From the IMG/VR virus record IMGVR_UViG_2029527006_000005: a DNA stretch of 64,000 bases, one strand, 5' to 3'. Positions 7,836 to 11,546 of the stretch are shown piece after piece (positions within the stretch are counted from its first letter, which is position 1; every line of letters starts with the position of its first letter). The notes beneath the pieces are model-generated. The model was not told the origin of the DNA. It worked only from the letters and a program-made list of their open reading frames with translations, and did no database searches. Source of the DNA: a virus (lineage: Duplodnaviria; Heunggongvirae; Uroviricota; Caudoviricetes). The position numbers and the translations under genes were made by a program.

Positions 7836-8276
7836 TTATTGTAAATGTTTAAGTTTGTAGAGCGTCCGTTCTACAAATGAGATAATATCCTCTAGACTAT
7901 TAACTGAACCGAAATCTTCTCTGGCTTCTAATAGCTGGTGGATATACTTAGCTTGTTCTACATAAGATTCCAATGTAGGAATTGCTTGCTCAAGTGGAAG
8001 GAAACAATAATCTGTATCCATGCCAATTGGTAATGGTCCTCTTGAGTTCATTAGTCCTTCAACAAATGAATCAACGATTTCCGGTAATTCTTTATAGAAC
8101 TCATCAAGTTCCATGTGTTTTGAATACATACTGCATTGTAAATGCCAGTGATGACCTAAAGCTGGCAAAAATAAACTATTATCAACAAAAGTTAATAATG
8201 CAATATCTGAGTCATCAGTTTGTTCAGTACTATCCACGTAGTCCATCATACTACGCATATCTTCATATTCGTCCAT
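7836..8276 (-). CDS. Dps/ferritin-like four-helix protein
   Basis: HHWHL...SKHMELDEFYKEL..IVDSFVE resembles the Dps ferroxidase helix motif; late promoter upstream. Confidence 0.6.
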   Translation of the reverse strand: MDEYEDMRSMMDYVDSTEQTDDSDIALLTFVDNSLFLPALGHHWHLQCSMYSKHMELDEFYKELPEIVDSFVEGLMNSRGPLPIGMDTDYCFLPLEQAIPTLESYVEQAKYIHQLLEAREDFGSVNSLEDIISFVERTLYKLKHLQ

Positions 8277-8709: not shown

Positions 8710-8886
8710 ATTATAATTCTCTTTATATTCGCTGACCAACTCATTGCATTCGTTAGTCAAGAATTCATTACTTCGTTAGCTATCGCTATCGCTCATCTAA
8801 CTTGTACTGAATTGGAATATTTCAATTGTACTTTAATTATTGACACGGTTTGTTAGCCAATTCCATCCCCCCACAAAGGAGGGACG

Positions 8887-8910
8887 AAAAAAAATCAGGA
8901 TAATCCTGAC
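8887..8910 (-). terminator. intrinsic terminator ending the non-coding unit
   Basis: Minus GTCAGGA-TTA-TCCTGAT followed by a T-run. Confidence 0.75.
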
Positions 8911-9371
8911 ACTGGTAGTCATACCAATCTGAATTTGTAGATTTTACTCAAATTCCAGACGGATCAATCCATTTGGAATAAAAGTAATCGCTGGCGGGTT
9001 GTCCGGTTTCCAGCTACTACAGTCGCATACAACGGTCGTGTTCCTCACACGCATACAGTACTTGCTAATTCAGCAACAAATACTGCTGTCTCTCCGTAAA
9101 GAGACTCCCTTTCAACTAGGTGAGTATGCCTCATATGTCTATCTAGGGCGTTTATGTTTTCTTACACGCCTTTATTGTGCCGCATTGCCGTGTCGCGTGT
9201 GATTTACTGTCCATTGGATTGACTACACTTACGCTTTATTACTGACGGGTTTCTTTTGCACATCGTACTGAACGAACTACTCATCTGCCATCTACTTTTC
9301 GATAGGATCAGGTTTCAATCTTCATGCTTTCACATGTCATTCAGGATTGGTATGACGAGGGTATCCCTCAT
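8887..9371 (-). ncRNA. large structured non-coding RNA of unknown class (~470 nt)
   Basis: No credible ORF; promoter at 9377-9405 and terminator at 8887-8910; closing helix 9339-9356 with 8918-8934 (17 bp, one bulge); many internal stems. Confidence 0.7.
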
Positions 9372-9376
9372 CATAT

Positions 9377-9405
9377 ATTATATCACAAAAAAACCCTTTT
9401 GTCCC
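9377..9405 (-). promoter_or_regulatory. promoter GGGACA-N12-TGTGA-TATAAT
   Basis: Same motif with identical 17-nt spacing at four loci. Confidence 0.8.
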
Positions 9406-9408
9406 AAC

Positions 9409-10201: not shown

Positions 10202-10843
10202 TTATGCCTGTTCTGTCAACACTTTTTTCAATGCTTTGTTATGACGATTATAAGCCCCTACATGAGCCGCACAGAGGCCGCTGAGGTAATCGGCTACCTT
10301 GGCTTCACGCATCTCATTGCGGTGCTTCACGATGGCCTTGTACTCTTCCGTACCCTCTTCACGCTTACGCAAACGATAATGATGTAGAGATGTAGCACGA
10401 CTAGTAATCAAAGACTGACCATGCTCTTTGTAGCGAGCCAAGAAATCTTCAAGGTTTGGATAGCGAGATCCACGTAGCTGATTACACTTTCTGCACATAG
10501 TGTTGAAGTTTGATTCAACATCGGGACCACCTTGGGATTTAAGAATGTTGTGGTCAACGGTCATTAGTTGCCAAAATTCACCCCAAGTAGTTTCTGCACG
10601 TCCATAAACGTTTAAGTGCATCATACCAAAGATAGCATGAGTACCTTTACCTTCTTCTAAACGTACTTCATGAGATTCGATCCCGCAGCAAATACATTTA
10701 CTATTCTTCAAGAAAGTTGCAACTTTCTCTGGGAAGTAGTTAAACTTCACACCATCAACTTCTGCACTTGTCATCGGACCAGAAGTTTTTAACGTTTTCA
10801 GAACATCTAATGGTAGTACTTTATTGACTTTATAACCCAGCAT
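10202..10843 (-). CDS. HNH endonuclease (Zn-binding, McrA-like)
   Basis: CICCG...TVDHNILKSQGG..VESNFNTMCRKCN. Confidence 0.8.
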   Translation of the reverse strand: MLGYKVNKVLPLDVLKTLKTSGPMTSAEVDGVKFNYFPEKVATFLKNSKCICCGIESHEVRLEEGKGTHAIFGMMHLNVYGRAETTWGEFWQLMTVDHNILKSQGGPDVESNFNTMCRKCNQLRGSRYPNLEDFLARYKEHGQSLITSRATSLHHYRLRKREEGTEEYKAIVKHRNEMREAKVADYLSGLCAAHVGAYNRHNKALKKVLTEQA

Positions 10844-10854
10844 AATAAAACCTC

Positions 10855-11193
10855 TTATTTGGTTTGTATTTTTTGTGTCTCTTGAAGTTTACGGATAGTG
10901 TCTACCAGTGAATCATGTGTCACTGCACAATCGGTGTAAATATCATCCCATTTGACGAGTACTCTCATCGTTTCCTTACCATCATACAACTGTTGCCCGT
11001 TTTCGTCAAGCATTATATTGCCTTTTTCGTCACGTGCTGGTACTTCTGGTAATGGCGTATCTTTCGTACATTTTTTGAGTAATGACTCCTGTACGATAAT
11101 TGGCTTAACATCACCTTTGACGGTTTTTGCACAACCTGATAGAGACAATACTATCATAACGCAGCAAGCAATTGCAAGTAAAAATTTACGCAT
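10855..11193 (-). CDS. o-spanin (outer membrane lipoprotein)
   Basis: Signal peptide with lipobox LSGC, two further Cys, directly downstream of the i-spanin. Confidence 0.75.
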   Translation of the reverse strand: MRKFLLAIACCVMIVLSLSGCAKTVKGDVKPIIVQESLLKKCTKDTPLPEVPARDEKGNIMLDENGQQLYDGKETMRVLVKWDDIYTDCAVTHDSLVDTIRKLQETQKIQTK

Positions 11194-11546
11194 TAGTTAG
11201 TTCTCCGTTTATTAGATTCTTCCTTGAGCTTCTTAAGAGCGTCAACACCTTCTTGGTCGAGTGATGGGTTTTTGTAAACCTTCTTCTCTACAATGATGGG
11301 AATCTCTTTCTCAATAATTTGAGCCTTACTTTGTTTAATAAGTTCTTTAGTATCTTCTAAGTTCTTAGCACCTTGTGCCTGAATATCAGATAGACCCTTA
11401 TCAAACATCTTCTCAATTTTGGCTTCTAGGTTGTCTTTGTACCCATGATATACTTCATTCGATTTCCAACCACCCAAGAAAGCCCCAATAACAAAAACTA
11501 GTATTGCTAATGGCTTCCAAAATTTCTGTATGAATGCAAAATTCAT
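11193..11546 (-). CDS. i-spanin
   Basis: Single N-terminal TM plus coiled-coil periplasmic region; TAATG coupling to lipoprotein gene. Confidence 0.7.
   Translation of the reverse strand: MNFAFIQKFWKPLAILVFVIGAFLGGWKSNEVYHGYKDNLEAKIEKMFDKGLSDIQAQGAKNLEDTKELIKQSKAQIIEKEIPIIVEKKVYKNPSLDQEGVDALKKLKEESNKRRTN

Follow-up and report, generated by a model that had tools for sequence, protein, structure and literature searches.

A candidate RNA-primed replication origin in jumbo phages and enterobacterial islands, built around a large pseudoknotted RNA

Introduction

What does a jumbo phage keep in a long stretch of its genome that encodes no protein? The window analysed here, a stretch of 64 kb from a tailed phage, contains one conspicuous gap of this kind (positions 8761–9408), which spans 648 bp without an open reading frame, the runner-up being 343 bp long, and has a GC content of 41%, the window overall having 37%. 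A first-pass annotation, made from the sequence alone, had recognized this gap as the largest gene-free stretch of the window, as is indeed the case, and had read it as a stand-alone transcription unit on the minus strand, producing a structured RNA of an undescribed phage class. Four functions were proposed for this RNA, namely a large scaffold, a protein sponge or anti-defence decoy, a CCA-ended tRNA mimic and a replication primer.

The window derives from a close relative of Salmonella phage Munch, to which the locus is 93% identical over its length. A literature search, which covered few subscription papers, retrieved no paper on this RNA or on the replication origins of the RaK2/GAP32/121Q jumbo phages. 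Hardly any of the large ornate RNAs of phages has a function that can be put to the test. In this work, we describe the family to which the locus belongs, the fold of its RNA and the DNA that follows it, and we weigh the readings to which they give rise. All features of the window described below lie on the minus strand.

Results

BLAST retrieved the locus from the phages Munch, EJP2, fHe-Yen9-04, BF, CBB, GAP32, XaC1, PBECO4/121Q and RaK2, mostly unannotated and in several copies per genome. In searches of whole genomes, five copies were counted in Munch, EJP2, fHe-Yen9-04, CBB and XaC1, four in PBECO4 and JNE01, and at least two (2–3) in RaK2, all of them sharing one strand within each phage genome. 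Motif scans added viral, metagenomic and bacterial copies, and the resulting 168 full-length hits were reduced to 94 distinct sequences with a mean identity of 63%. Three more motif scans of viral and metagenomic sequences, based on strict patterns that distant relatives could escape, detected no member beyond RaK2/GAP32-type phages and enterobacterial islands. Plasmids from PLSDB, searched with two different copies, yielded chance words only, and no circular contig was seen among the metagenome hits. One contig filed under a Clostridium metagenome-assembled genome (L118:976–1647) bears a near copy of the Buttiauxella/Enterobacter island element, and is probably misbinned.

A promoter of the sigma70 type lies at 9377–9406, with a −35 element resembling TG(G/A)(G/A)AC at 9406–9401 and an extended −10 element (TG-N-TATAAT) at 9385–9377, from which transcription is predicted to start near 9371. 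The promoter previously placed at 9405–9377 is thus present, with an extended −10 element in addition, and it is a property of the family: a −10 box of the form TATA(A/C)T precedes all 94 copies, its TG extension 77 and the −35 motif 87 of them. The 5′ hairpin of the window copy (9355–9371) is optional and copy-specific. A hairpin with a U-run right after the start site, within the first 50 nt past the promoter, was noted in 13 of the 94 copies; it could stop read-through from upstream, or be an RNA attenuator that times origin firing.

A protein-coding gene was considered for the locus and rejected, as the longest ATG frames vary between copies (median, 52 aa) and the gap is empty in most records, a few of which call differing tiny ORFs. 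Small hypothetical ORFs are annotated over the RNA and its boxes in phages Hallingskeid (L003:1591–1987) and fHe-Yen9-04 (L004:3246–3548); they differ between phages and look spurious. The neighbours of the window copy are genes for an HNH endonuclease, an i-/o-spanin pair and a Dps/ferritin-like protein (10202–11546 and 7836–8276). The HNH gene is not tied to the RNA, since it is absent from the orthologous locus of EJP2, BF, CBB and GAP32.

The RNA body runs from 9371 to the end of box B, at 8906 (approx. 465 nt; 382–542 nt across the family). Its claimed degree of structure withstood comparison with shuffled controls: the minus strand from 9371 to 8887 folds at −150 kcal/mol (z = −5.0), an energy equalled by none of 100 shuffles. 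Covariation among relatives pointed the same way. In a sequence-only alignment, 19 of the 20 top covarying pairs were canonical. When pairs among the 94 copies were counted above the 95% level of a null simulated on the tree, 27 exceeded it, 26 of which are canonical base pairs. Pairs picked on one half of the tree were found paired in 85% and 94% of the changed cells of the other half (clade cross-validation), shuffles reaching at most 49% and 59%, respectively. Moreover, G-U cells outnumber C-A cells in the fold by 211 to 84, which fixes the strand of the RNA.

Three domains emerge from covariation. The 5′ domain (9176–9344) contains two long-range or pseudoknot helices with two-sided changes (9344–9337 with 9275–9268, 92% canonical; 9262–9258 with 9180–9176, 100% canonical), together with stems at 9311–9285, 9280–9278/9267–9265 and 9248–9245/9191–9188. 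The middle domain (9088–9184) is made of stems 9184–9183/9137–9136, 9170–9166/9151–9147 and 9105–9100/9093–9088. The 3′ domain (8929–9086) holds a further two long-range helices, one between the loop (9073–9067) of a hairpin at 9086–9055 and 8935–8929, the other between 9021–9017 and 8940–8936 (98% and 99% canonical), as well as stems at 9050–9038, 9031–9029/9002–9000, 9014–9010/8994–8990 and 8987–8984/8947–8944. The RNA thus has four pseudoknot or long-range helices, 92–100% canonical.

The local hairpins of the first-pass annotation fared better in this comparison than its larger architecture. Five of these stems are 85–100% canonical with two-sided changes across the 94 copies, the CATGT/GCATG stem being weaker (approx. 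79%). The long helix held to close the RNA end to end is paired in only 42–45% of cells across the family. The strands of its inner 5 bp belong, by covariation, to the helices 9344–9337/9275–9268 and 9073–9067/8935–8929, and the outer 12 bp are confined to a few orthologues of the window copy, among which compensatory changes do occur. A second proposed long-range helix (9202–9195 with 9052–9045) is paired in 47%. The supposedly unpaired terminal UACCA belongs to box B, and reads UAUCA in 55 of the 94 copies. The hairpin and U-run interpreted as a terminator (8887–8910) exist in the window copy, where they take the last 5 nt of box B, and a similar hairpin was found in only 45 of the 94 copies. 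The closing helix, the second helix, the CCA end and the terminator were consequently all dropped as traits of the family. Nor does the unit end near 8887, as conservation extends about 150 bp further in the 3′ direction.

A search of Rfam, including ROOL, GOLLD, OLE, tmRNA and RNase P, gave no family at gathering score, and a permissive search of the locus a best E-value of 0.85. The reported lack of tmRNA, RNase P and group I or II intron signatures was confirmed by Rfam and ARAGORN. A CCA-ended tRNA mimic or tmRNA was rejected on the negative results of both programs and on the replacement of CCA by UCA in those 55 copies. The proposal of an undescribed phage RNA class therefore held, and covariation together with the lack of an Rfam match supports a real, large, structured non-coding RNA of an uncatalogued class.

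Two local elements of the fold can be singled out. An internal-loop module of about 25 nt (8952–8979 in the window; core GATCCGTC) sits in either or both of two different stems, according to the copy, and is a candidate protein-binding or tertiary-contact module. At 9263–9287, a conserved AGAUGAG, a 3-bp stem and CGA resemble a hammerhead core in which an A replaces the hammerhead U; no Rfam hit was obtained for it.

Downstream of the last RNA helix, every copy displays the same order: box B, a variable spacer, a hairpin with a pyrimidine and a G-tract arm, box C, an AT-rich tract and a series of hairpins. Box B (8906–8918) is formed by the 13 nt at the 3′ end of the RNA; it has no conserved partner within the RNA, and is our proposed guide. 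The pyrimidine/G-tract hairpin (8861–8888) carries six G at 8872–8867, the G-run being always on the 3′ arm. A run of four to seven G is found in all 94 copies, and of the seven G6 runs in the 350-kb genome of Munch, five fall in this hairpin. Its top strand folds better, with 142 G-T pairs. Box C (8840–8852) is a 13-bp DNA repeat of box B, and we propose it as the site of RNA invasion and of the switch from RNA to DNA. Its pattern occurs exactly five times in the 350 kb of Munch, once per element. The G-tract and box C accompany all 94 full copies, none of which lacks the segment from B to C. Box B is separated from box C by 47–87 bp in the family (66 bp in the window copy), and the −10 box from the G-tract by 417–601 nt.

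The two boxes vary together. At the six positions that are variable in the family, B equals C in 94, 93, 94, 94, 94 and 93 of the 94 copies. The sole non-canonical pair among the 27 above the null links position 4 of B to position 5 of C, identical in all 94 copies (55 T/T, 39 C/C). About 16 changes at these six positions can be placed on the tree, all but about two of them joint; rare joint changes were observed in RaK2, in Serratia and in the window copy. Independent-pair sign tests of single positions all gave the expected direction, with too few pairs for significance. Furthermore, the B/C pair varies among paralogues of one genome, yet is matched within each copy; the constraint therefore acts in cis.

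Several explanations of this match were examined. No RNA column complementary to box B or box C was detected in the alignment of the 94 copies, and a third RNA segment complementary to both was likewise not found there. A site for a shared trans-acting protein is disfavoured by the differences between paralogues within genomes. Gene conversion between the boxes is disfavoured too, as B and C disagree at position 2 in 94 of 94 copies and B never loses its extra A. At the last position, a G in B faces an A in C 10 times, in several lineages, and the reverse never occurs, a bias that fits wobble if B pairs with the complement of C. The simplest partner of box B would be the DNA strand opposite box C.

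This match bears directly on the scaffold, sponge and decoy functions first suggested. An RNA acting in trans like ROOL and GOLLD, be it a scaffold, a cage, a sponge for proteins or a decoy against defence, and lying next to a DNA signal with which it has nothing to do, would be consistent with the size and pseudoknot density of the element, which are like those of these RNAs (PMC12286853), with the promoter that each copy possesses and the terminator of about half of them, and with a dosage effect of multiple gene copies. Such an RNA would have no need for a box B that equals box C in cis, copy by copy, nor for a G-tract and box C in all 94 full copies, and neither a tRNA cluster in the window (ARAGORN detected no tRNA gene in its 64 kb) nor an Rfam match accompanies it. 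A scaffold, sponge or decoy leaves unexplained both the match between the 3′ box of the RNA and a DNA box 47–87 bp downstream and the helicase swap described below, in which the downstream module is retained. We thus regard a trans-acting RNA as improbable. The primer RNA is, of the four functions, the one favoured here, the CCA-ended tRNA mimic being unsupported.

Beyond box C, an AT-rich tract (8800–8839) is a putative unwinding element; across the family, its first 40 bp are 74–80% AT. The tract is followed by a module of hairpins of the single-stranded-DNA type (8732–8794), a proposed helicase or primosome loading site on the displaced strand. In the window, this module comprises a mini-hairpin on tandem G·A pairs (8794–8783), whose motif occurs nowhere else on its strand in the whole window, a mini-hairpin with a GAA triloop (8776–8770) and a hairpin at 8760–8732. 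C-GNA-G mini-hairpins, a form of exceptional stability as DNA, number 115 in the 170 bp that follow box C versus 6.8 expected, a 17-fold excess contributed by 79 of the 94 copies, and three on the opposite strand. The tandem-GA motif follows box C in 35 of the 94 copies and is never seen in the RNA body or on the other strand. From this strand bias, the top strand after box C looks single-stranded; it is also the strand that would be displaced by an R-loop at box C.

The DNA-type loops of this module raise the question of whether the fold as a whole works as single-stranded DNA, the entire element being a large single-strand origin or initiation signal that transcription merely opens. In a slipped structure, box B of the top DNA strand might likewise pair with the strand opposite box C. 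The body, unlike the downstream part, has no excess of GNA triloops (34 versus 30.6 expected), and the predominance of G-U over C-A cells (see above) and the multiple pseudoknots are typical of RNA. In addition, the promoter begins exactly at the 5′ edge of the fold in all copies. We consider a DNA fold very improbable.

Copies in the phage genomes are spread out as well as co-oriented. In Munch, gaps between copies range from 53 to 82 kb, and the chance of so large a minimum gap is 0.003. The corresponding values for other phages are 0.005–0.07, for genomes that are related by descent; as copy spacing is inherited by descent, these genomes are not independent tests of spacing. Third-position skews revealed no clear leading-strand pattern in Munch, and GC skew was uninformative. 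A DnaB-type helicase is encoded in all five phages examined and RNase HI in four of them, RaK2 giving no RNase HI hit. A search for T4-type RNase H matched nothing anywhere, controls included, and is therefore uninformative.

Copies oriented like most genes, behind strong promoters and with optional terminators at both ends, might also be cis-acting transcription elements, such as a put- or EAR-like antiterminator or a polymerase-tethering RNA that serves long operons from five entry points, with B/C as a pause or hand-over site. Nevertheless, 26 promoters of this type in Munch lack the RNA, the gene that comes next is convergent in many islands, and the DNA-type hairpins and the helicase swap would be left unexplained; we give such a transcription element an even smaller chance than a DNA fold.

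Complete single copies of the RNA were also retrieved from low-GC islands in the chromosomes of E. coli, Citrobacter, Enterobacter, Buttiauxella, Silvania and Serratia. There, the RNA usually stands directly behind a tyrosine or large serine integrase gene, and genes for a CI/Ner pair, a resolvase and defence systems come after it. Three islands delimited by att repeats measure 8.2, 8.7 and 12.3 kb. Their defence cargo includes DarTG with a helicase, Hachiman, Kiwa, GmrSD, an nSTAND3 NTPase, AbiGi and a SMODS gene (L123–L131, L042, L278, L284), as well as a DUF488/DUF4326/dual-OB trio. Island copies occupy at least three positions in the tree; exchange with phages was therefore repeated, in one direction or the other. 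In Serratia sp. L9 (L130:15014–15946), a 5′-truncated copy is fused to a truncated integrase gene, in what appears to be a decaying island that retained the 3′ part.

No Rep or primase was recognized (Pfam, PHROGs) among the proteins scanned from RNA-bearing islands. In the E. coli ffs island (L042:13357–14880), the RNA is preceded by a 303-aa gene, whose product has a zinc-finger-like stretch at its C terminus, and then by a repeat-rich spacer. As this product gives a faint initiator-like (Lin1244-like) Pfam hit (E = 0.02), not every island can be called Rep-free; this gene is possibly a second replication module.

With the Citrobacter copy as query, 25 E. coli chromosomes were found to share the hairpin module only. 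In two of these chromosomes, examined individually, no remnant of the RNA is left, and its slot is filled by a 477-aa gene together with an AT-rich inverted repeat. Between a gene-bearing and an RNA-bearing E. coli island, the downstream module is 86% identical over 93 bp and then 79% over 1 kb. Two islands at the ppdD site, with integrases 71% identical, carry in the same slot the RNA and the 477-aa gene, respectively, with the same module after it.

A protein 98% identical to the 477-aa product is predicted to adopt an SF2 helicase fold, its nearest solved structures being DinG/XPD. The family corresponds to PHROG 2467, and many of its longer homologues have a fused N-terminal primase domain, so that the shared task would be replication. 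Profile searches for this helicase detected nothing in ten RNA-bearing islands, nor in Munch, fHe-Yen9-04, CBB and RaK2; PBECO4 has one weak, broken fragment. The helicase is present in phage Atu_ph07 (L279:4022–7300), in which the RNA profile finds nothing. The RNA and the SF2 helicase thus appear to perform one task in alternative ways, and the fold, fusions and position of the island helicase suggest that it may act as an initiator. In Atu_ph07, a 990-bp gap without GNA mini-hairpins follows the helicase gene. In Cronobacter phage S13 (L280:2998–4575), a homologue precedes an inverted repeat centred on AT, with GNA mini-hairpins on either strand; this region is a candidate origin in a T4-like phage.

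Repeated acquisition by islands would also be expected of a mobilization signal, at which a phage protein, hijacked by the islands, performs RNA-guided nicking, recombination or packaging at box C. TnpB- and bridge-type RNAs combine a folded scaffold with a guide that matches a DNA site, a design that the 3′ guide and box C resemble. However, phage copies have no conserved nuclease or recombinase gene beside them and differ in their neighbours, the segment from B to C is never lost in full copies, and five copies inside the genome are more readily explained as origins than as a genome end. Of the readings considered here, mobilization has the smallest chance.

Discussion

The reading that best accommodates these observations is that the locus is a cis-acting, ColE1-like, RNA-primed replication origin that uses an unrelated pseudoknotted RNA. 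We estimate its probability at about 70%, on comparative sequence evidence. In this origin, RNA polymerase would produce an RNA of about 460 nt, as promoter conservation suggests. Covariation shows that this RNA folds into a multi-pseudoknot scaffold, with box B left unpaired at the 3′ end. Box B would then pair with the bottom DNA strand at box C, with a mismatch near the 5′ end of box B and one bulged A, a pairing to which the covariation of identity between the boxes points; the G-tract hairpin between them may help to open or hold the loop. The top strand would be displaced over the AT-rich tract and fold into a loading site, as the strand-specific DNA mini-hairpins suggest. By analogy, RNase HI would finally trim the hybrid to a 3′-OH primer and a DnaB-type helicase load on the displaced strand, the fork running with transcription. 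Four or five co-oriented copies split the 350-kb genome into stretches of roughly 35–120 kb, and small Rep-less islands probably replicate after excision with proteins of the helper phage or the host.

Some observations sit less easily with this origin. As a terminator-like hairpin is present in nearly half of the copies, and occupies five nucleotides of box B in the window copy, the model needs either read-through or invasion by released RNA. PLSDB plasmids yielded no match to the element, the third-position skews of Munch lack a clear leading-strand pattern, the ffs island has its faint Rep candidate, and RaK2 gave no RNase HI hit and only 2–3 copies.

A bolder version, which we hold to be possible but on balance unlikely, makes the RNA itself the initiator: with its 13-nt 3′ guide, it would locate and open the matching box in cis, needing hardly any dedicated protein or none, and would be freely interchangeable in evolution with an SF2 initiator helicase. 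It would amount to an RNA-guided origin that can be re-specified by a joint change of B and C, a device used repeatedly by jumbo phages and captured by satellites.

The origin model makes definite predictions, namely the location of the hybrid, the identity of the displaced strand and the outcome of compensatory mutations at the two sites. If true, it would add a second, independently built structured-RNA origin to that of ColE1, and the first multi-copy form in a virus. It would also mean that an RNA and a protein initiator replace each other in one slot of mobile elements, point to a defence-carrying satellite family of jumbo phages, and give a likely role to the unannotated helicase family PHROG 2467.

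Among known systems, ROOL and GOLLD resemble the element as large multi-pseudoknot RNAs of phages and prophages that have no coding frame (PMC12286853). The element differs from them by its lack of an Rfam match, its location away from tRNA islands, its tie in cis to a DNA cassette and its multiple copies per genome.

The islands are similar to phage satellites (P4, PICI/SaPI, PLE) in their size (8–12 kb), integrase, att repeats, divergent regulators, replication slot and swappable defence cargo. These satellites rely on Rep-ori modules, with a primase-helicase in the replication slot. In the islands, an RNA gene replaces the primase-helicase in this slot, and no packaging genes were recognized.

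The ColE1 origin depends on a 550-nt RNA that stays hybridized to the DNA close to a G-tract; RNase H cuts this RNA down to a short primer, and the helicase is taken up by the displaced strand (PMC5043065, PMC6317783). Host restart proteins can act on R-loops of this type (PMC5778457). The element shares with the RNA II system of ColE1/pMB1 a host-type promoter about 500–600 nt before the proposed start, a folded non-coding RNA, a G-tract just before the proposed start, rare elsewhere in Munch, and the lack of an initiator protein. ColE1 contains a single instance of the tandem-GA mini-hairpin motif, which lies on the displaced strand about 140 bp beyond the origin, in the region of the primosome assembly site. 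In RNA II, too, an upstream run of G pairs with a run of C further away in the template. The element differs in having four pseudoknot or long-range helices and a 13-nt matching box of mixed sequence with a bulged A; it resides in jumbo phages (2–5 copies) and chromosomal islands rather than plasmids, and its terminators are optional. The nhmmer profile of the family gave no hit on ColE1 at E = 10, and no Rfam match to the antisense RNA I (RNAI) was found in the window. On sequence grounds, with no homology, no RNA I match and no plasmids, the RNA element is not a member of the ColE1 family.

Phage T4 offers the other precedent. Its oriF and oriG are among several dispersed origins, each combining a promoter with an unwinding element and primed by a persistent RNA-DNA hybrid. 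These origins use ordinary middle-mode transcripts without a conserved fold, and are not paralogues of one another. The putative origins described here are likewise dispersed sites with a promoter and an unwinding element in a large T4-related genome, but differ from those of T4 in that a single RNA fold and a single downstream cassette are common to all copies.
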